Positions 41,425 to 56,575 of a stretch of 64,000 nucleotides of DNA are shown piece after piece. Each line of letters starts with the position of its first letter. Position 1 is the first letter of the stretch. The position numbers and the translations under genes are program-made. Location of the stretch: positions 20,745-84,744 of the forward strand of contig JAQUBA010000002.1 in assembly GCA_028686985.1 (NCBI GenBank). The letters run 5' to 3'. The stretch is from Candidatus Iainarchaeum sp. GTDB lineage: Archaea; Micrarchaeota; Micrarchaeia; Anstonellales; Bilamarchaeaceae. The notes beneath the pieces were generated by a model that worked only from the letters and a program-made list of their open reading frames with translations, was not told the origin of the DNA and ran no database searches.

Positions 41425-43156
41425 GGTGGTATGGATGAATGCACAAAGAATGGCCCGGGAGCCGCGCGAGCTTTCCGCGGATGAGCTTGTTGACGAATTC
41501 AAGGCGGTTTCGCAGACCTTCACCGGCCGTGCGACTAGCCTTATCCCCGAACTCCAGAGGAGGCTGTCGGACGAAACCCTGCGGGAGCAGCTTAGGCCCA
41601 GGGCGGGCGAGCTTGCCGATTACCTGCACGCGCTTGCCGGTGCGTTGTCTTCAAACCTTGTCATTGAGCAGGCTGAGCCGCTTGTGCAGCAGGCCCTGGG
41701 GATGCGCACCGAGTTATACCTCATGAGCACGGTTCCGGTTGAGGAGGAGAGGCGGCTCGCAGAGCAGGGCGAATCCATGGTGGGAGTCGGCTACGTGAGC
41801 AGGCCAGGCGTCCCGCCGATAGAGCAGCCTGCCGTCAGGCAATACCTGTCCCAGAACCCGCTTGATTTGGTTGACCTTACGCTGCCAATTGACTGGCTGA
41901 GGCACTTCACTGATGAATACAGAGATACCACTACGCAATTGATAAGCGATGGCTATGCGCTTGAGCTTTCGCGGGACTTTGACGGCGCGAGGGAGAGGGG
42001 CGCACAGGCGGTTGACAACATCGCCAGGATGGTGAGGGAAGGCTCTTCTGGCGGCTCGGACATGAGCACCGACAGGTTGCTCAACGAAGACCCCTCTTCA
42101 TGGACGGAAGGGGAGCGCGAATTCGTAATTGACATGCTGGGCAAGGCGGACTGGTCCGCGGAAGAGCAGGCGAGGTACCTGCCGGAGATAGTGAGCCTCC
42201 TCAGGCTCATAAACGACGGGCAGTTCACCGAGGCGTTCGACCGTGCGGCCGGCGACACCACGCTGGGCCAGGCACTCACAACCATGCTCGTGGAAACCCT
42301 GGAGCAGAGGCTCTCCGTCCATGTTCCCGTGGGCTACCTGAACATCGGCGTGGAGGGGACGGTCGTCAATGTCCGGTATTCGGACGACGAAACGTTCCGA
42401 ATGTTCCTGAGGGGCTTCCTCAGGGGCGTCCTTGACCAGAAATACAAGCCAGCAGTATCCATCCGGGAAACCGACGGGGGTTCGGCAATTGATGTCCTGA
42501 TGGAGCCGACCGACGAGTTCGCGTTCGGAGGCATAGGCGGCGGTGGCGGAGTCGGCTTTGAAACTACCGCAGCCCATCCGATGAGGACTGTTTCTCTTGA
42601 GCTGGATGCGGCCTACGACCCTGTCGCGGACAGGCCCGTTTTCACCGGAAGGCTGGAGTTCTCGGACCAGAGCGGCGAGTGGACCGCCCCGCTGGACGGC
42701 GTAATCTACCCCTCGGTTTACCTGGAGGGCGGCGTGGACGCATCCGGAACAACCGGCCATGTGGCGGTGGGGGCGATGGTTGAGGCTGGCTCCTCGTATT
42801 TCATTTTCGGAGACTGGAGCATGTTCATGCTGCTGAGCCTGGATTACATAAAGAGGTTCGGCGAGCCAATAGTGGCGCCGTCAGAAAACCTTGAATTGGG
42901 CTTCGGGGGAAGGGTTGTTTATTCCGACGTCGTCTCGCTCAGCGGAAGGTATTTGCTCAACCCGATGAATGAGAACATGGGATTCATCGGGCAGGCGATG
43001 GTCAATGTGGGCGCAGGCGTGTCCCTTGGTTTCTCCGGCGGCTTCAGGGAAGTTGACATAAACATTTTCAGGAGCAGCCAGGCGATAATAGCGCCTGAAC
43101 TGTCTTTCAACATCGGATGGAACATAGACGATTTCATAAAATACCTTAGGGAATAG
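41414..43156 (+). CDS. Hypothetical protein (580 aa) with Gly-rich beta-rich C-terminal half, overlapping the giant gene by 11 nt
   Basis: Start overlaps giant-gene stop; C-terminal alternating hydrophobic/Gly pattern (GFGGRVVYSDVVSLSGRYLLNP...). Confidence 0.55.
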   Translation: MDCEVVWMNAQRMAREPRELSADELVDEFKAVSQTFTGRATSLIPELQRRLSDETLREQLRPRAGELADYLHALAGALSSNLVIEQAEPLVQQALGMRTELYLMSTVPVEEERRLAEQGESMVGVGYVSRPGVPPIEQPAVRQYLSQNPLDLVDLTLPIDWLRHFTDEYRDTTTQLISDGYALELSRDFDGARERGAQAVDNIARMVREGSSGGSDMSTDRLLNEDPSSWTEGEREFVIDMLGKADWSAEEQARYLPEIVSLLRLINDGQFTEAFDRAAGDTTLGQALTTMLVETLEQRLSVHVPVGYLNIGVEGTVVNVRYSDDETFRMFLRGFLRGVLDQKYKPAVSIRETDGGSAIDVLMEPTDEFAFGGIGGGGGVGFETTAAHPMRTVSLELDAAYDPVADRPVFTGRLEFSDQSGEWTAPLDGVIYPSVYLEGGVDASGTTGHVAVGAMVEAGSSYFIFGDWSMFMLLSLDYIKRFGEPIVAPSENLELGFGGRVVYSDVVSLSGRYLLNPMNENMGFIGQAMVNVGAGVSLGFSGGFREVDINIFRSSQAIIAPELSFNIGWNIDDFIKYLRE

Positions 43157-43166
43157 GTGGAATTAT

Positions 43167-45140
43167 ATGAAAAAAACCCTGTTGTTCATGGCGTTGGTCC
43201 TCTGCGTTTCGTTCGCCGAGGTTGTGGTCACGCAAGCATATGAGGGAAACCTTTACACTCCCAACACCCCCCCGGCTTATTCGCGGGTGCATATGGAACC
43301 GTTCCTCTATTTTGAGGACACGCTCGTAGTTTCCACGGATTCCCGCGTCATCTATGGCGGCCCCGCCGATGATTTGCAGCAGGATGCCATAATCTGCGAA
43401 GGGGACGTGACCACCTCCGCGGATGCGGACGGGGAATGGGCGCATGGCGGATTCTACCAGCATGTATATTACCTGCTCCCCTGCGAACCTCCATCCTATA
43501 GCCGGGTCAGCAACAATGTCCCGATATTCTGGGACGCGGACTCGTATGATGCGCTTTTTCCGGAGGATGTCTGCAACGAGGGCGAGCCCGGATGCTGGGG
43601 CATGGAGGGCTCCCCCATACGGCAGAGGGTGGACGTTTATGAGAAGTACGATGGCAGCGTGACTTACTCAAACAGGGAGGGGCAGACCAACGTGGTCTGC
43701 AAGGGAGTCACTACGCTCAGGTACGATGGCACGCTTCTGGACAGCTCGGTAATCGGCGACGCGCCCACCGGGGGGTCCATGCGGCTCACCCACGGGATGC
43801 ACACCATAACAAACGGGATGGATGTGCAGGGATGCCTCGGGGTGACCCGCAACGTTGCATGCGATGCGACCTCCGAACTCAGCGAGAGGGTGTTCGGGAG
43901 GACAAGCGCGCAGTTCGGCTCAGGGGCACCCGGATACTCAACCTCGCTCCAGTCCACAATGAACATCCGCGTCGTGACCGATGCGGACCTCCGCTGCAGC
44001 GCAGAGGCGGTTTCAGTAACCCCCTCCCCGGTGAATGTTTCCCCAGGGGGAACGCAGCGCATCACCATAACCGTGAGGAATGCATGCCCCTCCTCTGACC
44101 CGCTGTGCCAGCCCATTACGGTAACGGGGGTCACGGCCAGCAACGGCTTCAGGTTCAATTTTGACACAGGGGGAATGCTAGTCCCGCTCGGCTATTATAC
44201 CGTAAATCCGGGGCAGGCAAAGACGTTCAACGGAATCCTCACCGCCCCCGCATACACCACATGCCCAACCCGGCTCACGTTCACCGCGGCATACACCTGC
44301 CCGGGATGCACGGGCACTTTCAGCGGCACGCCCGCAACGGTAAATATCCCGTTTGACTGCCCTCCCCCGCCAGAAACGGAGGAGAACATCACCAACCTGG
44401 TGCCTAGCTTCACCCCGGACCTGCCAACCCGTGTAGACATAGAGACGGGCGGCGAACTTGACTTCAGCGTCATAACCTGGAACAACGGGCAGAACACCAG
44501 CAATCCCGGCGAAACGTGCGTGAACATAGGCAACTGGATGGTCAGCGGCCCGATTCCCGGCCCGAGCATAAGGATTTTCCTGGACCTTCCAGGCATATCA
44601 CCGATACGCTACTCATACGGTGCAATACCCCCGGGCGGCTCGGTCGTGCACGAACCCATAAGCTTCGCATGCACCCCCGCGATGGAGAACATGACCTACG
44701 TGCTGATTGCGAACGTGGACTGCATACCTCCTGGAAATGGCACAACCACTGAAACGGACGAGTCGGACAACATCGTGACAAGGGTGTTCAACTGCAGGCC
44801 AGCAACGGGCAACGAAACGGAGCACGAAGGCGAATACAACTGCGACATCAGCCCCTCGTTCCAGACCGGCTACCCGCTTGGCACATACTCCTTCCACGTG
44901 ACCTGCCCCGATGAAGGCAATCCGGACGACATGTGCGGCGGCTCCATAGACTGGGACTCCTCCTCGCGCAACGTGACATACACCGGTTCGGACGACCTGG
45001 ACTTCTACCGCATAATTGTTGGCGGCGCAACGCTCCCCGGCAGCGTATCCATAGTGGCGGACGTAAGGTATGATGACGGAAACGCGACCTGCAGAGCCGA
45101 GCTGAATGTCCCCACAGTCCCGTGCGAAGAATTTGTGTGA
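43167..45140 (+). CDS. Secreted cysteine-rich surface/adhesin-like protein with CARDB/DUF11-like repeats
   Basis: 657 aa; signal peptide MKKTLLFMALVLCVSFAEVVVTQA; 30+ Cys; repeated beta-sandwich-like segments (VNVSPGGTQRITITVRNAC..., VDIETGGELDFSVITWNNG...). Confidence 0.6.
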   Translation: MKKTLLFMALVLCVSFAEVVVTQAYEGNLYTPNTPPAYSRVHMEPFLYFEDTLVVSTDSRVIYGGPADDLQQDAIICEGDVTTSADADGEWAHGGFYQHVYYLLPCEPPSYSRVSNNVPIFWDADSYDALFPEDVCNEGEPGCWGMEGSPIRQRVDVYEKYDGSVTYSNREGQTNVVCKGVTTLRYDGTLLDSSVIGDAPTGGSMRLTHGMHTITNGMDVQGCLGVTRNVACDATSELSERVFGRTSAQFGSGAPGYSTSLQSTMNIRVVTDADLRCSAEAVSVTPSPVNVSPGGTQRITITVRNACPSSDPLCQPITVTGVTASNGFRFNFDTGGMLVPLGYYTVNPGQAKTFNGILTAPAYTTCPTRLTFTAAYTCPGCTGTFSGTPATVNIPFDCPPPPETEENITNLVPSFTPDLPTRVDIETGGELDFSVITWNNGQNTSNPGETCVNIGNWMVSGPIPGPSIRIFLDLPGISPIRYSYGAIPPGGSVVHEPISFACTPAMENMTYVLIANVDCIPPGNGTTTETDESDNIVTRVFNCRPATGNETEHEGEYNCDISPSFQTGYPLGTYSFHVTCPDEGNPDDMCGGSIDWDSSSRNVTYTGSDDLDFYRIIVGGATLPGSVSIVADVRYDDGNATCRAELNVPTVPCEEFV

Positions 45141-45176: not shown

Positions 45177-46484
45177 TCAGACCTTAATCTCATCCCCTAT
45201 TGACGGGACCACGACCTCGTAGCTCCTCTGCAGGCTCTCCTGCATTGATTTGAGCGCATCCTCTTCCCCATGGATAAGCACCACTTTCTTCAATCCCTTT
45301 ATGCCCTTCACGAATTGTATCAATTCGCTCTTCCCGGAGTGGCCTGAGATGCGTATCTCCCTCACCTTCATCCGCATCTTCACCATCTCGCGGTCTATCT
45401 CCACCTCCTTGGCGCCCTCCAGTATCTTCCTGCCGCGGGTGCCGTCCGCCTGGTAGCCCATGAATATTATCTTGTTTTTCGGGTCCGGAGCCATGCGCGT
45501 CACATAGCCGAGCGCGGGCCCGCCGGTGAGCATCCCGGAAGTGCTGACCACTATGGACGGCTCCTCAAACACGTCGTCCCTGTCCTTCCTGCGGGGCGTG
45601 TGGAAATACGGGCTCCTGAACGGGTCGTCGTCGCTCATTAATATTCTATTCTTTATTTCCTCCTTCGCATACCCTAGGTTCTGCCGCGTTATCTTCATCC
45701 CGGTGCCTATCATCCCCTCTATGTATATTTTCGTTTCCGGTATCGCGCCCGATTTCATGTAGGATTCAAGCAGCAGCAATATCTCCTGCCCCCGCCCGAC
45801 CGCAAAGGAAGGTATGAGCACGTGCCCCCCCTCCTTCAATGTCTCCTTTATCTCGTGCGCCAGCTTCTTCATCGTCTCCTTCACCGCGGGCAGCTCCTCG
45901 TTCCCGTAGGTGCTCTCTATTATCAGCGTGTCGCAGTGGAAGTTCCTGTCGCACCCGTCCAGCAGTTTCGTGCCGCGCACCGATATGTCCCCCGTGTAGA
46001 GCACTCTTTTTTCCCCTTCCACCAGCGCCATCGCGCTGCCCAGGATGTGCCCCGCGTTCAGCAGGGAAACCTTGAAGCCGTGCCCAGAATTGAATGGCTG
46101 CCTGAACTCATGCAGGCGGAAATTGTTCATCGCATTGTCAACGTCCTTCTGCGTGAACGCCTCGGCCCCCCTGCGCACGCCCCTCCCCAGCCGCGCATAG
46201 TCCGCGAGCAGCACGGAGACCAGGTCCCTGGTCGGCTTCGTCGCATGCACGTGCGGCTTCAGCCCTTCCTTGAAAACGTGCGGCAGATAGCCCGAATGGT
46301 CCAGGTGCGCGTGCGTGACGACAATGTCGTGCAGGTGCTTCCCCATCGCATCCGGTATCTGCGGGTACTCGGTCTGTTCGCCGAGCTTCACCCCGCAGTC
46401 CAGCATTATGTATTTTCCCTTCTCGTGGAGCATGAAGCAGTTCCTTCCGACCTCGTGCGCCCCTCCGTAAATGTAAAGTTCCAT
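45177..46484 (-). CDS. Beta-CASP metallo-beta-lactamase RNase (aCPSF2/RNase J-like)
   Basis: 435 aa; HxHxDH motif VVTHAHLDHSGYLP, beta-CASP region, C-terminal His motifs. Confidence 0.75.
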   Translation of the reverse strand: MELYIYGGAHEVGRNCFMLHEKGKYIMLDCGVKLGEQTEYPQIPDAMGKHLHDIVVTHAHLDHSGYLPHVFKEGLKPHVHATKPTRDLVSVLLADYARLGRGVRRGAEAFTQKDVDNAMNNFRLHEFRQPFNSGHGFKVSLLNAGHILGSAMALVEGEKRVLYTGDISVRGTKLLDGCDRNFHCDTLIIESTYGNEELPAVKETMKKLAHEIKETLKEGGHVLIPSFAVGRGQEILLLLESYMKSGAIPETKIYIEGMIGTGMKITRQNLGYAKEEIKNRILMSDDDPFRSPYFHTPRRKDRDDVFEEPSIVVSTSGMLTGGPALGYVTRMAPDPKNKIIFMGYQADGTRGRKILEGAKEVEIDREMVKMRMKVREIRISGHSGKSELIQFVKGIKGLKKVVLIHGEEDALKSMQESLQRSYEVVVPSIGDEIKV

Positions 46485-46543
46485 GCACTAGTTTTGAGGG
46501 AAACGTATATAACGCTGCTTAACGCAATACCACCGGTGCCGTT

Positions 46544-47152
46544 ATGGTGCAACCGAGGCAGGCTGACAAGGACTATGCGACTGAGGCGGTCAAGCAGGGC
46601 ATGTCGCTTTCGGAAACATCTTACTCCATCGCCGGGAGGGGTCTCGTTTATATTGCGACCGACAGGCCGCAGAGCTCATTCAATTCAGTTGACGCCTACA
46701 TCCAGTACGTCTATGAAAACAGGCACGACCGCGACCGGGTGCAGTTCATAAACATAGACAAGAACAACCGCTACAACTCGCGCAGCGAGCAGGACCTTAT
46801 CACAAGGGCAATCGCGGAGCAGGAGGGTGTGGAGACAGTCCCGCCTTTCCGGAGGGAGGCGATGCGGGTCGAGGAAACGGAGAGGAGGGAGACGGAGATT
46901 GTGCGCGTCAGTTATGCGGGAAGCCCAGTGAGGATTGAAGTGGACGTCACCGACATGAGGCAGGTGGACAGGGATTCGCTCAGGCAGGACATAGAGCGGA
47001 TGGGGCGCAGGCCGGATGAGAATGCCCTGTTCAGCCTGGTGGACCGGTATTTTCCCTACATAGACAGAATCACCGTGCGCGGCAGGGAAGTTGAGATGGG
47101 CAATTCCGGATCTGCCATGTCGGACATAAACAGCATTTCCGGGCATGTGTGA
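46544..47152 (+). CDS. Family-A paralog 1 (lineage-specific hypothetical; shares N-terminal YIATDR...YVYENRHDRD block with 50673..51389)
   Basis: 202 aa; ~50% identity over N-terminal 100 aa with A3; TATA-like acgtatataacg ~35 bp upstream. Confidence 0.55.
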   Translation: MVQPRQADKDYATEAVKQGMSLSETSYSIAGRGLVYIATDRPQSSFNSVDAYIQYVYENRHDRDRVQFINIDKNNRYNSRSEQDLITRAIAEQEGVETVPPFRREAMRVEETERRETEIVRVSYAGSPVRIEVDVTDMRQVDRDSLRQDIERMGRRPDENALFSLVDRYFPYIDRITVRGREVEMGNSGSAMSDINSISGHV

Positions 47153-47373
47153 CCGGGATTATTCAACGGGTGGAACGTATGGCAAGGGCGGAAGGAATGA
47201 AGTCCGTGCGTGTGAACGTTGCGGAAAAGTGGGAACAGGTAAAGGACGCGGTGCCGGTAAGGCTTCTGGACGCCAACCCCAAGGCGGAACGCCGCGCAAG
47301 GGATGGATGACGCATGCCACGCGGAGCACATGCAACACGGGGGGAAAGGAGGGAGGGGCAGAGCGAGCTTGAG

Positions 47374-48657
47374 ATGACGCGCCAGCAGGGCTTCACCGTA
47401 TATGGGCCGGTGAACGTGCCGGGCTATGGCGACATACACGTCGCATCAAGGGACATATGCGTATCCCCGCAGGAGCTGAGGGACTACGCCTACCGCGTGC
47501 TGTTCCCGGAATCCGCGGAAGGCAGCCCGAGCGACCGCATAAGGTTCCTGCGTTCCGGGGATACGAACTGCACCTATATCGCAATGGAGGAGGTGCGCGA
47601 GATATTCAGGAAGATAGACTGGAATGCGATATCCATGTCCGATGGCAGCATCTCCTTCCCGGACTTCAACGCAGAGCTGCAGTTCGTGGAGCGCAGGGAC
47701 TACGGCGGCCCGCTTCAGGCTCCCAGCCAAGCGCCCGCGGCATCCGAGGTTTCCGCCGCGCCGGTTTCCCGCGAAACCGAACTTCCGCAGGAAGGGGCGA
47801 AGCGCGCGGAGGCGGCAACCCGCGAGGAAGGCATCCCATACCTGGACCGGGAGCCGAGCTCCGTGGACGCAAGCCACATAATCTGGGGCGACTACTCATC
47901 CATCGTGGAGGGCACGCGCCGCACCCAGCCCCCTGAGCTCACGCAGCTGCAGAGGGAATACTTCGGGCTGAAGAGCGACGCCACATTTTACTGGAGGTCG
48001 CGCGGCACCGAAGGCTACGTAGCAATCTATTTCAATTTCATTTCCCCCGAGGGCGAGGCACAGGACACTCGGCAGCTCGCGCAAGAGCTCGCGGAGACGG
48101 AAGGGGACCTTTCCGCGCTCATCAGTTTCGTGCAGAGGCACATGGCAAACATCGCGGATGTGAACGTGGAAAGCGACCGGGGCGCGGGCGCGAACCTCAC
48201 CTCCGTCCAGCTGATTGCCGCGCTCTCCGCGATGGCGGGGCTGGAGCCGGCGTCCGCCGCAACGGAGCCCGTGCCGTCCATGCATGGGGGCAAGGCAGCG
48301 GTTTCGGCAGGGCTTGCCCAGGAACAGGCAGAGGAATACGGCGCACAGGTGATTGCCTACCCGGGCGACAACGTGATGGCTTCATTCCCTTCCATCACAT
48401 ATACGATGCGGGACGGCAGGACCGGCACCCTGGACGGATACTTCACGGTAACGCTCCCTTCGGACGAGCTTGAGGCGTGGAGGGTGCTCGTGAACATGCA
48501 GAGGATTGCGCGCGCACTGGAGCGGGGCGAAGCGATAAACGCACCGCTGCGGGACCTGCTCACGAATCACAGGGACAGCATAAGCTTCGTGGAGATGCAG
48601 GACTCCAACGGCACCCGCCTCACCGCGTCGCAGATAATCTACCGCTTGGAGCAGTGA
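47374..48657 (+). CDS. Hypothetical protein within paralog array (divergent member or distinct)
   Basis: ORF 47314..48657 (447 aa), start possibly at MTRQQGF; acidic, Ala/Glu-rich middle. Confidence 0.4.
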   Translation: MTRQQGFTVYGPVNVPGYGDIHVASRDICVSPQELRDYAYRVLFPESAEGSPSDRIRFLRSGDTNCTYIAMEEVREIFRKIDWNAISMSDGSISFPDFNAELQFVERRDYGGPLQAPSQAPAASEVSAAPVSRETELPQEGAKRAEAATREEGIPYLDREPSSVDASHIIWGDYSSIVEGTRRTQPPELTQLQREYFGLKSDATFYWRSRGTEGYVAIYFNFISPEGEAQDTRQLAQELAETEGDLSALISFVQRHMANIADVNVESDRGAGANLTSVQLIAALSAMAGLEPASAATEPVPSMHGGKAAVSAGLAQEQAEEYGAQVIAYPGDNVMASFPSITYTMRDGRTGTLDGYFTVTLPSDELEAWRVLVNMQRIARALERGEAINAPLRDLLTNHRDSISFVEMQDSNGTRLTASQIIYRLEQ

Positions 48658-48660
48658 GCT

Positions 48661-49533
48661 CTATTGCTGCGGCGGCGCGAGGTCTTCTCCGGATATTTCC
48701 ATTTCCCCCCCTCCATGCAATATGGCGTATCTGCCGCCCGCATTCCTTATCTCCGCCCTGCCGCGCACCGCTTCCGGGAGGATTATGGTGCGCATATCTA
48801 TCCGGGGCGTGCCGCCGAAATCCGCGGAGAGGACGTATGCGTTCGCGCTCCCCTCCTGCACGAGTATTGCGACGCTTCCAGCGGAAAGCAGCTGCCACCC
48901 TTCGGATGGCGCGAACTGTTTCTCGGCATACGGCACCCTCTCCATGCTCCAGCCCCTTGCGCCCAGCACCCCATCCCTGTTTATCATGAACATGCACGTC
49001 ATTCCGTTGTTGTGCGCGGCCGCAACCGAAAGGAAGTTCTCCCCCCTGAACCTGCTGTCCAGTTCAAAGGATATGGCCCTTGCGTCCCTGACCTCCCCCC
49101 CATCAACCGTTATCCACTCGTCCCCCCTTTCCGCCGCCTTCCATCCCATGACGAGCACTGCCCTGTCCTCCGAAACCACGACCGTGTGCTCCTCCCCCGG
49201 GACCATGGCCACAATCCTCCCGGGCTCGCCGTCCACCAGGTAGGTGAACCTGTAGGTGCCGTCCTTGGTCTCATATTCCATGCCGTACCTGAGTTTGGAT
49301 TCTGTAGCCCTGAAAAGGAAGCCGGTCTCCGCCCCGGCCCCGTTGCCTTCGGCCCGGAACCTCTCCTCGCCGAATTCAAATTCCTGCATATCGTTTTTCC
49401 TGGGCCTCACATCCCACCTGTCGAGGGGCACCGGGACGGTTTCTTCCCCCGCTGTGGCGTGCGGGCCGAACTTCTCATTTTGCACGGGCACCAGGCCCAT
49501 ATCGCCATATCTCTGCCCGCCTCTTTTCGCCAT
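48661..49533 (-). CDS. Family-B paralog 1 (no obvious signal peptide)
   Basis: 290 aa; shares GEEHTVVVSEDRAVLVMGW / GEQHSVVLTENYMMVVPG and C-terminal blocks with 53358..54275. Confidence 0.5.
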   Translation of the reverse strand: MAKRGGQRYGDMGLVPVQNEKFGPHATAGEETVPVPLDRWDVRPRKNDMQEFEFGEERFRAEGNGAGAETGFLFRATESKLRYGMEYETKDGTYRFTYLVDGEPGRIVAMVPGEEHTVVVSEDRAVLVMGWKAAERGDEWITVDGGEVRDARAISFELDSRFRGENFLSVAAAHNNGMTCMFMINRDGVLGARGWSMERVPYAEKQFAPSEGWQLLSAGSVAILVQEGSANAYVLSADFGGTPRIDMRTIILPEAVRGRAEIRNAGGRYAILHGGGEMEISGEDLAPPQQ

Positions 49534-49625
49534 GCATGAACTGGGTTCGGAAGAGTATATATTCCATTCGTGCGCAAAAAGAAAGATATTTAAATAAGCT
49601 CAACTGGATTATAGTGGGTGAAGTT

Positions 49626-50474
49626 ATGCCTGCACCGATGGTAAGACCTGAGAGGGAATTGAGAAAGGATTATGAAGCGACCCAGCAGATGCAGGTCGGA
49701 CAACTTCAGACCGAGTATGCTGATAGGGGATTTACAATTCTGAGGGCCGGTACGGACCTTGAAAATGTCAGGAGGAACATCTGGGCGGCATACGACCCCA
49801 AGACAGGGGACACTTATGTGTTCAGCGGTACGCGCGAAACCAGCTTCGGGACCAGCCAGTCGGTGTTGGACGCGGTTGGCAGATGGGTGGATAAGAGGAA
49901 TGCAGACCTTGCATTCAGCGAGACGATGGACGACACCCAGAGGCAGATCGACCTGAGGGGTTCGCGCGAGAGCGTGCGCAGCATGGACGCGCGCATGCAG
50001 GCATATTTCACCGAAGGAACGCAGCAGCCGGCGCAGGTGGCGAGGGAAACCCCCGCGCAGCCGGCCGCACGCGCAGCCGAGCCGGTGAGGGAGGAGCGCG
50101 CCCCGGCCACTGAACAGGCCGCCCCAAGCACGGCAGAGCCTGTCGCAAGGGAAGCCCAGCCTGCGGCCGCCAGTCGGCAACAGCAGGCGCTTGCAGATGC
50201 GATACGGACGGGGCAAAGAATGAGGATTCCAGTGTCCCAGAGCGGAAGTGAGCGGGTAATCATTACAATAGACGCTAGCCAGCTAAGCGAGTCAGATAGG
50301 TCTTTCCAGGCAAACCGGGCCGAGAGGGGCATTATCAACACTCCGGTTGGCATAATAGGGCTCTATAGGCTTTCCCGGGAGAATCCTGGCGCAATTTCTT
50401 TTACTTATCCTGATGGCACTCAGGTATCGGAAGATGATTTGCGCACCCGGGGCTGGCTCCCTCCGCGGGCATAG
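49626..50474 (+). CDS. Family-A paralog 2 (motif-bearing)
   Basis: ORF 49536..50474; start moved to MPAPMV downstream of TATA-like atatttaaata; contains VIITIDASQLSESDRSF motif; Pro/Ala/Glu-rich middle. Confidence 0.45.
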   Translation: MPAPMVRPERELRKDYEATQQMQVGQLQTEYADRGFTILRAGTDLENVRRNIWAAYDPKTGDTYVFSGTRETSFGTSQSVLDAVGRWVDKRNADLAFSETMDDTQRQIDLRGSRESVRSMDARMQAYFTEGTQQPAQVARETPAQPAARAAEPVREERAPATEQAAPSTAEPVAREAQPAAASRQQQALADAIRTGQRMRIPVSQSGSERVIITIDASQLSESDRSFQANRAERGIINTPVGIIGLYRLSRENPGAISFTYPDGTQVSEDDLRTRGWLPPRA

Positions 50475-50672
50475 CACCCGTTCCCGCCCTTCTTTTTCTT
50501 CTTCATCAATGGTTAATGGCATTTATGCGGGGGCTGGCACCGGCGGCATTGCCGGATGCGGCACGCAGCCGCCTGAACGATGGGCATGAAGCCCTCCGGA
50601 GCCGCCCGCCCGTATCCACCGACGCCCACCATTAGGTATAAATATGCTTGCAACGGCGTATATATCGGTGAA

Positions 50673-51389
50673 ATGATGCCAAGGGTAACCGAACAGAAAA
50701 GGGATGAGGTCATTGAGGCCGCGGACCACGGGATGACTTTTTCGGGGCAGTCTTATCAGGTACGCAACCTTGGGGACATCTACATAGCCACCGACAGGAG
50801 GCGCGATTCATTCTCAAGCAACGAGGAATACGTGAGATACGTATATGAAAACAGGCATGACAGGGACAAGGTCAGGTTCATAAACGAGGAGCAGAACAAC
50901 CTCTATAAGGCGACAAGGTACCAGGACCGGATTGCCGTGGAGATCGCCAGGCAGGCGGGCGTGGAGGTTTCCGCACCGCCGACCAGTTTCCCGGAGGAGG
51001 CCCGCAGGGCGGAGCAGGCCGCAGAGCAGCCGCAGGAGACGGTCACCCGCGAGAATGTGGAGGTGCGCGAGCAGCAGAGGGAAGAAACGGCAATCTTCAG
51101 GGTTTCTTTCTGGGGCAGGCCAGTCCGGTTTGAGATGGACGTTTCCAACCTGTCCGAGCTGGACAGGGAGTGGTTGCGCGGCAGCATAGACAGCCTGGCA
51201 AGGGCGAATGCGAGCAACATGGAGGACACGTTCTCTACGTTCATAGACAATTTCAAGGACAGGATGAGGGGGCTCAGCATGGAGTTTACGACCGAGAACC
51301 TGGATAGGTACTGGGGCGCGGTTCCTTATGGGAATATGACGGGCGCCGAGGTCGTTGCCCAGATGCGCAGCCTTATCGGCAGGGTCTAA
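50673..51389 (+). CDS. Family-A paralog 3
   Basis: Aligns residue-for-residue with 46544 paralog from the second Met; TATA box ggtataaatatg ~30 bp upstream of MMPRVTEQ; motif RFEMDVSNLSELDREWL. Confidence 0.55.
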   Translation: MMPRVTEQKRDEVIEAADHGMTFSGQSYQVRNLGDIYIATDRRRDSFSSNEEYVRYVYENRHDRDKVRFINEEQNNLYKATRYQDRIAVEIARQAGVEVSAPPTSFPEEARRAEQAAEQPQETVTRENVEVREQQREETAIFRVSFWGRPVRFEMDVSNLSELDREWLRGSIDSLARANASNMEDTFSTFIDNFKDRMRGLSMEFTTENLDRYWGAVPYGNMTGAEVVAQMRSLIGRV

Positions 51390-51392
51390 TAG

Positions 51393-52265
51393 ATGGGAAA
51401 GAATCAGGCCCGTTCCGACGCGGAGCGCGACTCCGGGGCAAGGAAAGGCATCCGCACGCCGCGGCGCGGCGCCACTGCCAAGATTATCGCCGCGGGGCTG
51501 ATGCTCGCCCCCAATCCAGCACACGCGCGCAGCCCTTCCCAACCCGCCGTTTTCCAGCCCCCGGCATCCGGAACATCAGGCACATCCGACCTGCTCTCAC
51601 CGCAGCCCGAGCAGATCCAATACTCTGAAGCGTTCAGGGACGCCGATTTCACCTGCGAAACAGGCGGTGGGATGGTGCGCATAAGCGGGAATGTGGAAGG
51701 CGGAAAGATTGAATTCCCGGCCCCGGCGGACCTGGGCGCGGTGCGCGGCATATACCGCACAGGCTCCCGCATCCGCGTGCTTTCCGACAATTACCTGATA
51801 ACCGCGCGGGCCAGCGGCACCGATGCAATCAACGTTTCGCTTCCGCAGGGGGCGAAGGGAGCGCTCTCCGCCTGGCTTTCCACCGAAAACACATTCTACA
51901 TCCTTTCCTCGGACGGGAACGTGCATGCGACAAACCCGGAGGACACAAGTTGCCCGTGGTATTCCGGGGGGCCGTTCCGCACGGTGGAGGGCGCAAGGCT
52001 CATGGAAGTGAGAGGTTTGCTCGCAATCGTGCAGGGCTCTGCAACGGCAGTCATACTCGTCAAGGTCGTCCCGGGCGGCGCATGGGATTCGCTGTCCGTT
52101 CGCCTGAATTTCCAGCCCGAGGGGGAACCGTCCGTTTCCATGACCCCAACCGGATTCAAGGTGGTTTTCGGGAACTGCGAAGTGGCGCTGGACATACCGG
52201 GCGAAGGGGAGATGGGCTCCGTGCTCCCCATCGTCACAAGGCACGAGCCAGCCAATCTGCCTTAA
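51393..52265 (+). CDS. Family-B paralog 2 with twin-arginine-like signal peptide
   Basis: 290 aa; TPRRGATAKIIAAGLMLAPNPAHA; homologous blocks with 53358 (RGLLAIVQGSATAV vs RGLLLVLQSGALPV). Confidence 0.5.
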   Translation: MGKNQARSDAERDSGARKGIRTPRRGATAKIIAAGLMLAPNPAHARSPSQPAVFQPPASGTSGTSDLLSPQPEQIQYSEAFRDADFTCETGGGMVRISGNVEGGKIEFPAPADLGAVRGIYRTGSRIRVLSDNYLITARASGTDAINVSLPQGAKGALSAWLSTENTFYILSSDGNVHATNPEDTSCPWYSGGPFRTVEGARLMEVRGLLAIVQGSATAVILVKVVPGGAWDSLSVRLNFQPEGEPSVSMTPTGFKVVFGNCEVALDIPGEGEMGSVLPIVTRHEPANLP

Positions 52266-52364
52266 TTTTCAATTTTATTTTTCTATCCTGCCATTCCCAG
52301 CCGCACTTCTGCAATCCACGGAAAACTATATATAGCTGACCGAAGGATTATCATAGGTGATGAT

Positions 52365-53342
52365 ATGGCTCAGGCACACAGGCAAACTGTATCCCAGTTA
52401 AGAGACCAATTGGCAAGCCAGGGTTTTGTGGAAAATACATTGATGATAGGCGGAGCGCAGTATTCTGTTTGGATGAAGGGCTGCAGCGACCTGACCAATC
52501 CTGAAACGGTTTCCCAATTCATGCAGGGCAATGCACGAAACCGAAACGCCCTCCGCGTGTTCGCGGTAGACAATGGGCAGATTGCAGTCAGCTCGCGCGG
52601 CATAGAGGAGCTCCATTCCAACGAAAGGATCAGGGGCCTTGGGGAGAGATATGGCGGCGCCACAAAAGAGGCCCGCGAATCTTATGAGCGTGAGCACCCG
52701 CCGGCAGCCTTCATCAGGGAAGCGGCTGAATCAGAGGTGCGAGCAGAGCCAGCGCCGGCAGCCCAGCCCCCGGTTGTGCGGGCCCCCGCAAGGGCGGAGA
52801 GAGTTGCGGCGCAGACGACCACGCAGGGCGCGCCATTTACAGTATATGTATTTAATACTGTCATTGAGCCCACGCAATTCCGGCCAGGCTCATATGATAT
52901 GACACACTCCCATTCAGAAACGTATCATATTGACCTTAACAGGCTAAGCGCGGCGGAACGCCGTACCTACGAGGATTTGAGAGGCAAGTACTCAAACCCA
53001 CGCACTGCATACGATCCAAATCAGATGAACACGGATTTGCAGGCGTTTATTGACAGGGTGAGCGCGAGGAATGCGTGGATCAATCCGGGTGCCGCCACGC
53101 AGGGAACTGAGTTTTCTTTCACCCAGCTTGCCGCGGGCGCCAATGTAACATCTGACGTGACCGAATCATACACATTCAGGATTGACCTCAATGTGCTTGA
53201 TGACGGCCAGCGCCGCCGCCTAAACGCTTTGCTCGGGGTTTTCAGCAACAACCCGACCGAGGCCAATAACCTGGAAAGAATGCAGGGCTTCCTGAATTCC
53301 CTCCCAAGCGGAGCGGTGATACAGAGGCCAACCATGGCGTAA
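52365..53342 (+). CDS. Family-A paralog 4 (two copies of the hxhDhNxL motif)
   Basis: 325 aa; YHIDLNRLSAAERRTYEDLRG and FRIDLNVLDDGQRRRLNALLG; N-terminal similarity to 54379 (RIRGLGERYGG vs LGERLGERGG). Confidence 0.5.
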   Translation: MAQAHRQTVSQLRDQLASQGFVENTLMIGGAQYSVWMKGCSDLTNPETVSQFMQGNARNRNALRVFAVDNGQIAVSSRGIEELHSNERIRGLGERYGGATKEARESYEREHPPAAFIREAAESEVRAEPAPAAQPPVVRAPARAERVAAQTTTQGAPFTVYVFNTVIEPTQFRPGSYDMTHSHSETYHIDLNRLSAAERRTYEDLRGKYSNPRTAYDPNQMNTDLQAFIDRVSARNAWINPGAATQGTEFSFTQLAAGANVTSDVTESYTFRIDLNVLDDGQRRRLNALLGVFSNNPTEANNLERMQGFLNSLPSGAVIQRPTMA

Positions 53343-53357
53343 AAATCGGCTGTTCGG

Positions 53358-54275
53358 CTATTGGGCCTGCGCTCGGGTTTCTACGGCTACGGACAAGGTT
53401 GATGCATCGCCTTCCGTGCCTATCGTTATTGTGAGCGTTGCATTTCCCCCCCTCAGGACAATGGACCCAGCATGCGATTCTACCGAAACGGGCCCCTCCA
53501 GCGCCGGATTCAGCGGGTAATCCGCTTCCACCCACCCATCGCTCCCTGGCATGGCGCCCTGGAAAGCAAGAACCGGAAGCGCTCCGCTCTGCAGCACAAG
53601 GAGCAGCCCCCTGAATGCCGCCAGTTTCGCGTCTTCGCCGATTCTAGTGTTCGGGAGGCTCCTCTCCCAATCCCCATCCGGGTCAGAGACGTCTATGACA
53701 TAAATCCTTTTCTCCGGAGTCAGGAAATAGAAAAGGTTCCTTTCATTGTCAAATGCATGCTCATTAAGGGCATCCGGAAGCAGGATATCCATGCTTGAAA
53801 CAGTTTCCCATTCGCTGTTCCTTCCGGGCACCACCATCATGTAGTTTTCAGTGAGAACGACTGAATGCTGTTCCCCGACCATCACGTCCTTCACCGCACC
53901 GCGTCGCTCCCTCGCGATGCTGTCAAAATGGACTTTCTTTTCGCCTCCGCCAGGGAGCGCATAAGTGAGCTCCATCCCGCAGTCGCTCTCCCTCACAGCA
54001 ACCTGCGCATTCCTGAATGTCTCCGCCATCCCTTCCGTGATGCAGCCCATTTCTATGGTGAAGCCTTCTATAAGGATTTCTTCGGTTGGAGGCCTGCCTT
54101 CGGAAGGGGCCTGTGCGGCAGTGCGCGGAGGAAGGGGAAGCTCCCGAGGGGGCACCCTCGCCCCGGCTTCCGGAGCCGCCAGCATGATAGAACCTGCAAT
54201 CGCAAGGGCAAGGGAACGGCGGGTTCCCGTTTCACATTTTCCTGCCCCATTTTTGCTCGCAACTGGAATTGCCAT
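53358..54275 (-). CDS. Family-B paralog 3 with twin-arginine-like signal peptide
   Basis: 305 aa; GTRRSLALAIAGSIMLAAPEAGA; convergent with A4. Confidence 0.5.
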   Translation of the reverse strand: MAIPVASKNGAGKCETGTRRSLALAIAGSIMLAAPEAGARVPPRELPLPPRTAAQAPSEGRPPTEEILIEGFTIEMGCITEGMAETFRNAQVAVRESDCGMELTYALPGGGEKKVHFDSIARERRGAVKDVMVGEQHSVVLTENYMMVVPGRNSEWETVSSMDILLPDALNEHAFDNERNLFYFLTPEKRIYVIDVSDPDGDWERSLPNTRIGEDAKLAAFRGLLLVLQSGALPVLAFQGAMPGSDGWVEADYPLNPALEGPVSVESHAGSIVLRGGNATLTITIGTEGDASTLSVAVETRAQAQ

Positions 54276-54378
54276 AGTATAACCTTGGCTGGGAAGGCTT
54301 TTTAATACTATTACACACTTTCTAACACACTAACGGAAACCTTTAATAATAATGATAAGGTAATGTTGATGTGATATT

Positions 54379-54993
54379 ATGTCAAATGGTGGACAAATAA
54401 CCCGAGAAAGGCAGCAACCTGCCGAGACAGCGGCACAAGCCCATGTTTTCACCTATAACGAAACATTGACCCAGACGCTCCCCAATGGAAACCAAATCAG
54501 CTACCAGATTGGCTCGGATACTGTTGATGTGCGGGATGCACGGGGCATCCTTAAAGCACTCACAAACGCCCCAAGCCAGGTGAGCGTCCTCCGGATTGAG
54601 GGGGACCAGGAAGTAGAGCTCAACGATCTCCAGAAACACGAGCTGGGCGAGAGGCTGGGAGAACGCGGCGGCGATTTTGCCCTCGCTGGAGGCAGGGTTG
54701 AGCTTACCGGTGCGCCTGAAATCACCGTAATTCCCACTGAAGAGGTTGCCGCGGAAAGGCAGCAGGCAAGGTGGGTTACGATAAGAAGCAACGAATATGA
54801 ACAAAATGTTAGCGCTGAAAACCAACGTTCCTATTCCAGTGTTGAGATAGACATGAACGCGCTTACCGACGACCAAAAGCGTGAATTGGGCTTTTTCAGG
54901 GGCGGGCAGTCCTCCCTCAGTTCGCAGGAACTTCTGGCTTGGAGCGGAAGGGCGGAAAACCACTCAGTGGTCAGAAACAGGACGCGGCATTAG
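54379..54993 (+). CDS. Family-A paralog 5
   Basis: 204 aa; VEIDMNALTDDQKRELGFFRG motif; TA-rich promoter-like upstream region. Confidence 0.5.
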   Translation: MSNGGQITRERQQPAETAAQAHVFTYNETLTQTLPNGNQISYQIGSDTVDVRDARGILKALTNAPSQVSVLRIEGDQEVELNDLQKHELGERLGERGGDFALAGGRVELTGAPEITVIPTEEVAAERQQARWVTIRSNEYEQNVSAENQRSYSSVEIDMNALTDDQKRELGFFRGGQSSLSSQELLAWSGRAENHSVVRNRTRH

Positions 54994-55022
54994 GGCATTT
55001 TAGCCAGTTTCGGCTGCCCCGG

Positions 55023-55379
55023 CTATTTTTTCTTTATCGCCATCAGCGGGAGCAGCGCACATTTTAATCTTGAGGGGTTTTTTGAGAGGTCCAGCCCAAG
55101 CAGTTCCATCATTTTTTCCTTCCCAAGCCCCTTCATCTCCTCCATCGTCCTCCCCTTCGCATAATCCGCAAGCAGGGATGCGGAGGCGATGCTTATGGCA
55201 CATCCTTCGCCCGTAAAAGAAGCATCAGCAACCCTCCCATTCCTGATTTTCAAAAATATCCTCACCCTGTCCCCGCAGACCGGGTTCTCGCCCTCTGCAA
55301 CCACGTCCGCGTCCTCCATCTCCCCGCGGTTGGGCGCATTCTTCCAAATCTCCATTATCCTGGAATAGTCCACGCTCAT
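55023..55379 (-). CDS. sufU: Fe-S cluster scaffold protein SufU/IscU-like (NifU N-terminal domain)
   Basis: 118 aa; NPVCGDRVRIFLKI, GEGCAIS, CALLP cysteine ligands; 4-bp overlap with sufS. Confidence 0.8.
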   Translation of the reverse strand: MSVDYSRIMEIWKNAPNRGEMEDADVVAEGENPVCGDRVRIFLKIRNGRVADASFTGEGCAISIASASLLADYAKGRTMEEMKGLGKEKMMELLGLDLSKNPSRLKCALLPLMAIKKK

Positions 55380-56575
55380 GCAAAGACCTTCTTTACCTTC
55401 CTTATGCCTTCCACCAGCCGGTCCACCTCCTCCTTTGTATTGTACAGATGGAAACTGGCCCGTGCGGAACTCTCCAACCCCAACCTGTCGTGCAGAGGCT
55501 GCGCGCAGTGGTGGCCGCTCCTTATCTCTATCCCGTCCTCGTCCAGGATGGTTGCCACATCGTGCGGATGCACGCCCGGAACGTTGAAGGAAACAAGGCC
55601 GGTCCGCTTGCGCGCGTCCAACGGCCCGTATATTGAAACCTCGCCCTTCATTTTCGCAATCGCATATGTAATCAATTCAACCTCGTGCTTCCTTATCTCC
55701 TCCATCCCCACCCTGTTCAAATAATCTATCGCAGCCCCAAGCCCAATCGCCCCTTCTATATTGGGCGTGCCCGCCTCAAACTTGTGCGGAAGCTCGTTCC
55801 ATTTTGAGCCCTCCTTCTTCACCTCAAGTATCATGTCCCCGCCATAAAGGAACGGCCCCATTTTCTCCAGCAATTCTTTCCGCCCATACAAAACCCCTAT
55901 CCCCGTGGGCGCGAGCATCTTGTGCCCGGTGAATGCGAGGAAGTCGCAGCCCATCCTCTTCACATCAACCGGCATGTGGGGGACGCTCTGGGAGGCGTCT
56001 ATCACCGCAACACCGCCGCCCTCGTGCGCGACCCTGCAAATCCCCTCCGCATCGTTTATCGTCCCGAGCACATTTGAGGCGTGCAGAATGGATACTATCT
56101 TTGAGCCGGATGCCTTCTCCAGCTCCGCCAGTTCCCCGTCCCCGTCAATATCCACGAATTCCAGCTTCGCCTTCTTTTTCTTGGCAAGGAACTGCCACGG
56201 CACGAAGTTGGAATGGTGCTCCATTATGGAAATGGAAACCCTGTCACCCGCATCCACGTTCGCCATTCCGTAGGAATACATCACTAAATTCAGGGCTTCG
56301 GACGCATTCTTCACAAAAATGATTTCCTCCTCGCTCGCATTGATGAACTCCGCCACTTTCCTGCGCGCATCCTCGTACGCAATTGTGGATTCCTCGCTCA
56401 GCTTATGGACTCCGCGATGTACATTTGCATTATACTCGGAATAGTAGCGCACAATCGCATCAATCACCTGGCGCGGCTTCTGGCTCGTCGCCCCGTTGTC
56501 CAAATAAGCGATCTTTTTCCCGTTCACAACCCTTTCCAGAATCGGAAAATCCTTTCTTATCTTCCCAACATCCAT
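55376..56575 (-). CDS. sufS: Cysteine desulfurase (class V aminotransferase, SufS/NifS)
   Basis: 399 aa; PLP-Lys motif FTGHKMLAPTGIGVLYG, catalytic Cys loop HHCAQPL. Confidence 0.85.
   Translation of the reverse strand: MDVGKIRKDFPILERVVNGKKIAYLDNGATSQKPRQVIDAIVRYYSEYNANVHRGVHKLSEESTIAYEDARRKVAEFINASEEEIIFVKNASEALNLVMYSYGMANVDAGDRVSISIMEHHSNFVPWQFLAKKKKAKLEFVDIDGDGELAELEKASGSKIVSILHASNVLGTINDAEGICRVAHEGGGVAVIDASQSVPHMPVDVKRMGCDFLAFTGHKMLAPTGIGVLYGRKELLEKMGPFLYGGDMILEVKKEGSKWNELPHKFEAGTPNIEGAIGLGAAIDYLNRVGMEEIRKHEVELITYAIAKMKGEVSIYGPLDARKRTGLVSFNVPGVHPHDVATILDEDGIEIRSGHHCAQPLHDRLGLESSARASFHLYNTKEEVDRLVEGIRKVKKVFA

Follow-up and report, generated by a model that had tools for sequence, protein, structure and literature searches.

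In this study we ask why a short sequence motif centred on an Asp residue recurs in a run of neighbouring genes of Candidatus Iainarchaeum sp., within a stretch of 64,000 nucleotides of contig JAQUBA010000002.1 (hereafter the window). These genes belong to an orphan array of 8.5 kb comprising nine genes, in the order A1, X, B1, A2, A3, B2, A4, B3 and A5, and proteins identical to array members carry the label hypothetical protein in 'Candidatus ainarchaeum sp.' metagenome-assembled genomes (MAGs). An earlier note on this DNA had ascribed the motif to a modular binding or docking element of the family A proteins, possibly recognising the adjacent family B proteins, rather than to a catalytic site. 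The explanation that we consider probable, leaving some room for others, is that the motif is the signature of a fold, that of an orphan module which has been duplicated and shuffled, and that its conserved residues are kept mainly for structural reasons.

Six motif strings had been claimed in five genes of the + strand, and all six are found in the genes to which they were assigned, with one or two copies per protein. The copies, together with a degenerate one in A5 and the related features of X, are located in the window as follows (aa, amino acids; ORF, open reading frame).

46931-46981, + strand: A1 motif RIEVDVTDMRQVDRDSL, aa 130-146; C module at about 46892-47101
47611-47634, + strand: core match KIDWNAIS in X, falling in the N-domain
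about 47977-48183 and 48388-48612, + strand: putative C-type modules of X, without the Asp/S-N-T signature
50256-50306, + strand: A2 motif VIITIDASQLSESDRSF, aa 241-257 of the 312-aa ORF; C module at about 50211-50420
51126-51176, + strand: A3 motif RFEMDVSNLSELDREWL; C module at about 51087-51302
52923-52970, + strand: A4 motif, copy 1; repeat 1 at 52830-53093
53175-53222, + strand: A4 motif, copy 2; repeat 2 at 53106-53339
54517-54561, + strand: degenerate N-terminal motif copy of A5, DTVDVRDARGILKAL
54841-54888, + strand: C-terminal motif of A5, VEIDMNALTDDQKREL

The two A4 copies lie about 84 residues apart. The N-terminal copy of A5 is canonical in the orthologue from the related locus L003 (DTMDLSRLSDNEVRSRL). 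The putative modules of X were not placed in register by MAFFT, and their assignment is a tentative one.

The recurrence was quantified in the six-frame ORFs of at least 70 aa of the window (69,405 aa). A long post hoc pattern, [IVLM]D[IVLMA][NST].[LM]...[DEQ][RK]..[LFYIVM], matches five times, always in the motif genes of the array, against 0.005 matches in shuffled sequences. The 7-residue core [IVLM]D[IVLMAW][NST].[LMI][STDR] matches seven times against 0.72 in shuffles; all seven matches are in the array and in coding frame, and they correspond to the six motif copies and to KIDWNAIS in the 47314 gene (X), which may be the one chance hit expected. Circularity was avoided by leaving out one gene at a time and scoring with a position-specific scoring matrix built from the copies of the other genes, hence not fitted to its own target: the omitted copy ranks 1st to 4th of 62,381 non-training positions. 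The recurrence is thus far above chance. Furthermore, the DNA segments coding for the motif are 17-67% identical and differ in synonymous codons, and, the motif being conserved nonetheless, selection acts on the protein; a repeat at the DNA level, or gene conversion, was rejected on the basis of the same low identity. An N-glycosylation sequon (N-x-S/T) was also rejected, as A3 is its sole carrier.

In the consensus first proposed, hxhDhNxLxxx[RK], the Asn is only one of three residues (Ser, Asn or Thr) found at that position. The refined consensus reads [FIYV]-x-[IMV]-D-[LVI]-[SNT]-x-[LM]-[STD]-x-x-[EDQ]-[RK]-x-x-[LY]. Counting over 25 motif instances, which are not independent of each other, and numbering from the Asp, four positions show no variation: the Asp itself, Ile/Met/Val at -1, Ser/Asn/Thr at +2 and Leu/Met at +4 (25/25 each). 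The looser positions are +5 (Ser/Thr/Asp, 20/25), +8 (Glu/Asp/Gln, 21/25) and +9 (Arg/Lys, 20/25), and identity elsewhere in the module is about 10-25%. Orthologues in other MAGs and metagenomes retain the motif, namely six A3-type and five A1-type proteins, the A1 orthologues being P0007, P0013, P0025 and those of loci L006 and L007; both copies are retained in three A4-type proteins, and the motif is also present in a 168-aa island protein of L007. The A2 motif is kept in P0022, and variant forms are borne by the A2 orthologues of L008 (SVMVDPSKLDEGQL) and L006 (SFDYSVEGLNSEESRRL); the C-terminus of the A2 orthologue in L002 has diverged.

Where the motif lies in the protein was addressed with AlphaFold2 models of A3 (8-sequence alignment, mean predicted local distance difference test (pLDDT) of 71.9) and A4 (5-sequence alignment, mean pLDDT of 63.6). 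Both models show an α-β-β-α-β-α N-domain, followed by a linker with pLDDT below 50 and then by the C module, present once in A3 and twice in A4, with the order strand-strand-helix-helix-strand (the final strand being bracketed for A4). Block-mean pLDDT values are 82-89 for the A3 module (model positions 141-200) and 72-88 for A4 from residue 181 to the C-terminus. In A3 the elements are strands 138-145 and 148-155, a coil, helices 161-175 and 182-196, and strand 197-205; the Asp is the last residue but one of its strand, after which comes a coil of 5 residues. In A4 the strand preceding the motif ends at residue 189 in repeat 1 and at residue 273 in repeat 2, and Asp190 and Asp274 are in coil, each followed by a 3-residue, one-turn helix and two coil residues. 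Helix A starts at +6 in both A4 repeats and at +7 in A3, helix B at +28 in A3 and in A4 repeat 2, and strand 3 at +43 or +44. Thus the two independent models agree on the order of the elements and on their offsets from the Asp.

These offsets give the conserved residues a plausible structural role. A classic helix capping box has Ser, Thr or Asp at the N-cap position and Glu, Asp or Gln at N3. Since helix A starts at +6 or +7, position +5 corresponds to the N-cap and +8 to N3; indeed, in the A4 model helix A begins immediately after the N-cap predicted from sequence. The counts at +5 and +8 given above thus place a capping box ahead of the predicted helix A. By contrast with the idea of a free short docking peptide, the motif is embedded within a confidently predicted fold in both models, and the disordered linkers are elsewhere in the chains.

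Relationships among the motif proteins point to a whole module, not the motif alone, as the unit that was copied. A1 and A3 are clear paralogues (40% identity by BLAST, hhalign probability of 100%), and the two A4 repeats align over 52 columns (hhalign 96.9%, P 1.6e-10), so that the occurrence of the motif twice in one protein, as originally reported, is accounted for by a tandem duplication of the whole module. Links across the subfamilies are fainter: the A3 C module aligns with A4 repeat 1 over 44 columns (P 0.003) and with A2 (P 0.015), and A4 repeat 2 aligns with A5 (P 2.6e-4), the motif being in the same register in each case, and whole-family profiles compared between subfamilies reach a P of only about 1e-3. 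The 'family A' of the earlier note is therefore secured by sequence for A1 with A3 and for the two A4 repeats, but its other links are weak, with P of about 1e-3, and for the remaining copies we infer common ancestry. X shares the N-domain weakly: its alignment with the A1 family spans 105 columns (P 0.001), and P is 0.029 for the helix-B/strand-3 region.

Protein P0020 (L008 5189-5827) is chimeric: residues 1-80 bear no relation to A3, and it shares 68% identity over 132 residues, covering the linker and C module only, with the A3-type protein P0005. The module behind an unrelated N-terminus makes it an evolutionary unit, and P0020, judged from its sequence, is evidence of domain swapping within the island. 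Taken with the duplication in A4, this portability bears out the modular part of the earlier proposal.

Putting these observations together, the module would be a small, lineage-specific α/β unit with the order β1-β2-αA-αB-β3 and a core of about 55-70 residues, which long loops extend. The hydrophobic alternation (h-x-h) would form the end of strand β2, with the invariant Asp just past the strand and before a one-turn helix; the Leu or Met at +4 would be a buried anchor, Ser/Thr/Asp at +5 together with Glu/Asp/Gln at +8 would form the N-capping box that opens helix A, and the Arg or Lys at +9 would sit on the first turn of that helix. These positions (strand end, Asp, hydrophobic residue, N-cap and N3) are those expected of fold-determining residues. 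The array genes would be old paralogues, with the module placed behind an N-domain and a disordered linker, either acidic or proline-rich, and the double motif of A4 results from the tandem duplication, as does probably that of A5. The module itself would presumably bind proteins or serve as a scaffold within the A/B island, in a non-catalytic role. The recurrence noticed at this locus is, in kind, what paralogy and domain duplication ordinarily produce, here in a lineage-specific family without annotation. The motif is best read as the strand-to-helix joint of a small protein domain, not described before, copies of which have been shuffled among neighbouring orphan genes of a DPANN archaeon.

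Several points weigh against this structural reading. The Asp is invariant while most of the rest drifts, and this residue could mark a functional site rather than play a purely structural role. The alignments behind the two models are shallow (5 and 8 sequences) and the whole-chain confidence is modest; moreover, the side-chain roles assigned to the Asp, the Ser/Asn/Thr and the cap derive from DSSP strings only. Homology between subfamilies is weak, with P of about 1e-3 to 1e-2 and hhalign probabilities of 1-27%, and A2 and A5 could have converged on a favourable strand-to-helix joint. Finally, the A1-type copies, 5 of the 25 instances, have an Arg or Gly at the N-cap position.

The interpretation as an undescribed, lineage-restricted domain relies on database searches. 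The nine array proteins match no Pfam-A, NCBIfam, PADLOC or PHROGs family, the best sub-threshold family scores being, for example, 14-17 bits against cut-offs of 21-150; this agrees with the earlier statement that the motif is not a catalytic site, insofar as no known catalytic family of these collections is matched. The island proteins from the related loci have no Pfam hit either, Foldseek found no match with E below 0.04 for either AlphaFold2 model in the PDB or BFVD, and the literature yielded nothing specific. A profile of 16 module sequences was then compared with 1.84 billion representative proteins (E of 0.001 or less), and 17 proteins matched. Only A-type proteins, namely P0013, P0020, P0025, P0022 and the training families, match over the full length in a single stretch. 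The multi-stretch hits, which are repeat proteins of other folds or with unassigned repeats, to a cadherin (P0015), a viral BACON_2 protein (P0019), a WWE-PARP protein (P0021), the LTXXQ-like repeat proteins P0014 and P0023, and P0017, P0024 and P0016, were rejected as homologues, because their E-values sum several weak repeat matches to the core. The A and B families each occur in no more than a handful of related metagenomic lineages, and a metagenome scan with the A1/A3 alignment re-found only the L006 population.

Against PDB sequences the module profile gave matches at chance level only, which included de novo designed proteins with 'NLSDEQRRELEE' and the strand-turn of antibody framework region 3. 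The designed string corresponds to the helix-cap half of the motif, as expected for a generic capping sequence. The short core is thus a favourable strand-turn-helix sequence, which also scores in unrelated folds, and it is diagnostic only in the context of the whole module.

Two of the proteins retrieved deserve a separate mention. P0016 (1155 aa) has at least 12 repeats of the form 'F-D-I-D-x-x-Q-L-T-x-x-E-x-x-x-L-D-K-W', matches no Pfam family and is an unrelated protein; these repeats appear to be an undescribed type sharing the motif core. P0018 is a 501-aa lipoprotein-like protein with five 87-aa repeats. One of these repeats matches the module profile (hhalign P 0.0011) in an alignment of 52 columns that begins at the Asp, takes in both helices and reaches the final strand. 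This bacterial surface lipoprotein may hold a distant but unproven relative of the module.

An unlikely alternative is that the invariant Asp and the Ser/Asn/Thr at +2 constitute a small site that binds a ligand or cation, or is reactive in some other way, where the C-terminal end of the strand meets the N-terminus of the helix. This is a classic location of functional sites in α/β folds, the predicted models do have the strand end facing the helix N-terminus, and both residues are retained in all 25 instances despite identity of only about 10-25% elsewhere. Asp, Ser, Thr and Asn are, however, also the commonest purely structural capping residues, and there is neither a match to catalytic or binding families nor the second acidic residue or Gly seen in EF-hand or dockerin loops or in HAD motif I. 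As a weaker indication, the putative modules of X would lack both residues and persist nevertheless.

The other alternatives concern the partners of the A proteins and call for the layout of the island, whose genes are listed here with their window coordinates.

45177-46484, - strand: β-CASP ribonuclease gene (Pfam Beta-Casp/RMMBL), flanking the orphan array on one side
46544-47152, + strand: A1, 202 aa; N-domain, linker and one C module
47314-48657, + strand: X, 447 aa; A-like N-domain and two putative C-type modules
48661-49533, - strand: B1, 290 aa; distant member of family B, tail-to-tail with X with 3 nucleotides (nt) between
49626-50474, + strand: A2, 282 aa from the annotated start; the ORF (312 aa) begins at 49536
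50673-51389, + strand: A3, 237-238 aa from the annotated start; the ORF begins at 50580
51393-52265, + strand: B2, 290 aa; twin-arginine-like N-terminus and β-rich body, starting 3 nt past the A3 stop
52365-53342, + strand: A4, 325 aa; N-domain, linker and two tandem C modules
53358-54275, - strand: B3, 305 aa; paralogue of B2, tail-to-tail with A4
54379-54993, + strand: A5, 204 aa; C-terminal motif plus degenerate N-terminal copy
from 55023, - strand: NifU/SufS/SufC genes, flanking the orphan array on the other side

The content of the island between the β-CASP gene and NifU/SufS (window 45177-56575) varies among relatives (L002, L003, L006, L007 and L008). Loci L006, L011, L002 and L008 have A1, X, B1, A2', A3 and B2 and no A4-B3-A5; in L003 and L004, A4, B3 and A5' come directly after the β-CASP gene; and the island of L007 contains A1', the 168-aa motif protein and two B genes. 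The A4-B3-A5 cassette is accordingly present in the window and L003 and missing from L002, L006 and L008.

Within this variation the A and B genes remain close neighbours. A3 and B2 run in the same direction, separated by 3 nt in each of the three loci where gene calls make the spacer measurable (window 51389/51393, L002 2450/2454 and L008 5827/5831). The X/B1 and A4/B3 pairs are tail-to-tail, 0-15 nt apart (window 48657/48661 and 53342/53358; L008 2969/2973; L003 5607/5608), the X/B1 arrangement being kept in L006 and L008 and the A4/B3 pair in L003 and L004. Such tight spacing suggests co-expression or functional coupling. B2 and B3 find each other with E of about 1e-8. Both proteins (B2, …TPRRGATAKIIAAGLMLAPNPAHA; B3, …GTRRSLALAIAGSIMLAAPEAGA) begin with two Arg residues and a hydrophobic stretch (window 51393-51540 and 54140-54275), an N-terminus that looks like a twin-arginine or secretion signal; B1 lacks such a segment.

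On this arrangement one could build the case that helix A and its cap are the element by which each A protein docks on the adjacent secreted, β-rich B protein. The conserved tight neighbourhood of A and B genes in several genomes, the portability of the module, and the fact that helix A residues are conserved within orthologues and differ between paralogues are all in line with docking. We nevertheless judge it unlikely. The motif itself is predicted to be part of a fold and not of a flexible region, and the residues conserved across paralogues are generic ones (cap and hydrophobic positions), unlike those of a paralogue-specific interface. The numbers do not match, with seven motif copies (one of them degenerate) and two putative motif-less modules in X against three B genes; X, which has B1 as a conserved partner, is without a canonical motif, and A1 has the motif and no adjacent B gene. 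Moreover, B2 and B3 appear to have secretion-type N-termini and the A proteins have none, so the two would be in different compartments unless binding precedes export.

A broader and rather speculative proposal, to which we give low credence, is that the island is a polymorphic two-component system of DPANN archaea, made of cytoplasmic A proteins and secreted, twin-arginine-type, β-rich B proteins. The A proteins would then combine a constant N-domain with exchangeable C modules, and the motif-bearing module would act as an adaptor for its cognate B protein before export, or the two would form an effector/immunity pair. If this holds, the gain and loss of cassettes among strains would reflect specificity in host interaction or conflict.

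At the far end, chance, low complexity or composition as the source of the recurrence is effectively refuted: a 7-residue core is short, 0.72 matches are expected in the window, the X match may be one of these and similar cores do occur in unrelated folds, but seven core matches fall in one 8.5-kb array, all in coding frame, the leave-one-out ranks are 1st to 4th of 62,381, and both the conservation in orthologues and the similarity of the A4 repeats, which reaches far beyond the motif, also speak against chance.

Other observations on the island and its proteins were made in the course of this work. In the N-domain of A1 and A3, the string Y-x-Y-x-N-R-x-D-x-D-x-V-x-F-x-N (window 46690-46760 and 50830-50900) is invariant in 8 sequences and is far more conserved than the motif of the C module; it could be the functional centre of the A1/A3 proteins. 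A 354-aa protein encoded downstream of B2' in the island of L008 (6740-7804) resembles the A proteins at its N-terminus and holds HEDNH, an HExxH-like string, in its C-terminal region, with no Pfam hit; to judge by these features, an A-type N-domain may have been joined here to another kind of C-terminal domain. The NCBI record gives A4 as a 299-aa protein (P0008) with a start at 52443, 26 codons downstream of the start of the 325-aa ORF at 52365. The 325-aa form is probably the correct one, because the alignment with the orthologues P0009 and P0010 starts at the upstream Met. Directly upstream of the β-CASP gene lie three large ORFs of 1580, 580 and 657 aa (window 36682-45140), which have no Pfam match and are conserved in L003, L006 and L007. 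The 657-aa one has a hydrophobic N-terminus and is Cys-rich, and the three may be surface proteins.

The motif, as a profile and a regular expression, provides a handle for recognising this unannotated module, which defines a small paralogue family in DPANN archaea of the Iainarchaeota/Micrarchaeota type. Its value lies in annotation and in helping to choose the constructs and mutants with which the structure or interactions of these orphan proteins could first be studied. The module occurs in a strain-variable island beside putatively secreted proteins, a place in which to seek possible genes of host interaction.

Among known systems, the barstar-like immunity domains (PF01337) show a resemblance, in a strand and two helices with an 'h-I-D-L-x-x-I...' start and 'G-x-N-L-D-x-L' before helix 2. 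Membership was rejected, as Pfam gives no hit even with E allowed up to 1; the module profile aligned by hhalign with a single Bacillus amyloliquefaciens barstar sequence gave P 0.21, and no barstar chain is among the top 50 listed Foldseek matches in the PDB. The barstar fold has a three-stranded parallel sheet and four helices, and the strand-strand-helix-helix-strand order predicted for the module is only partly similar to it; barstar is a lead only and not a family assignment. In its genomic organisation the array resembles the immunity-gene arrays located by polymorphic toxins, which likewise consist of small acidic cytoplasmic proteins in a variable array of paralogues; no toxin domain was identified in the island.

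Resemblances of other kinds are local. In LTXXQ proteins (CpxP/Spy-like, PF07813), the helix start 'L-T-x-x-Q' recalls ALTDDQKREL of A5 and VLDDGQRRRL of A4, but those proteins are all-helical and secreted, whereas the A proteins have a β-hairpin and no visible signal peptide; the family was rejected, as no array protein matches it and the models contain β-hairpins. Dockerin and EF-hand repeats also have a D-x-N-containing segment followed by a helix, are duplicated within one protein and, as was proposed here, serve in docking. The dockerin repeat unit is, however, 22 residues long, and that of the array is a whole module of about 80 residues; these families were rejected on account of loop position 5 (Leu/Met, 25/25, where the calcium loop has Asp or Asn) and position 6 (Ser/Thr/Asp/Arg, with Gly in only 2/25), and neither a 12-residue loop with an acidic end nor a Pfam dockerin hit was found. 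Leucine-rich repeats, with their LxxLxLxxNxL units of 20-30 residues, were set aside given one or two copies spaced by about 84 residues and no Pfam hit for such repeats, and the ribbon-helix-helix fold, considered from the sequence pattern, was rejected with the other candidates. A short linear motif was rejected as well, since the motif is in folded regions (pLDDT 72-89) and similarity spans 44-52 columns around it. The nearest general parallel is the helix N-capping box, which has, like the motif, Ser/Thr/Asp at +5, Glu/Asp/Gln at +8 and a Leu or Met just before the cap. The motif differs from it in adding the end of a strand, the invariant Asp and the Ser/Asn/Thr two residues on, and is thus a longer, family-specific signature that goes beyond the generic cap.

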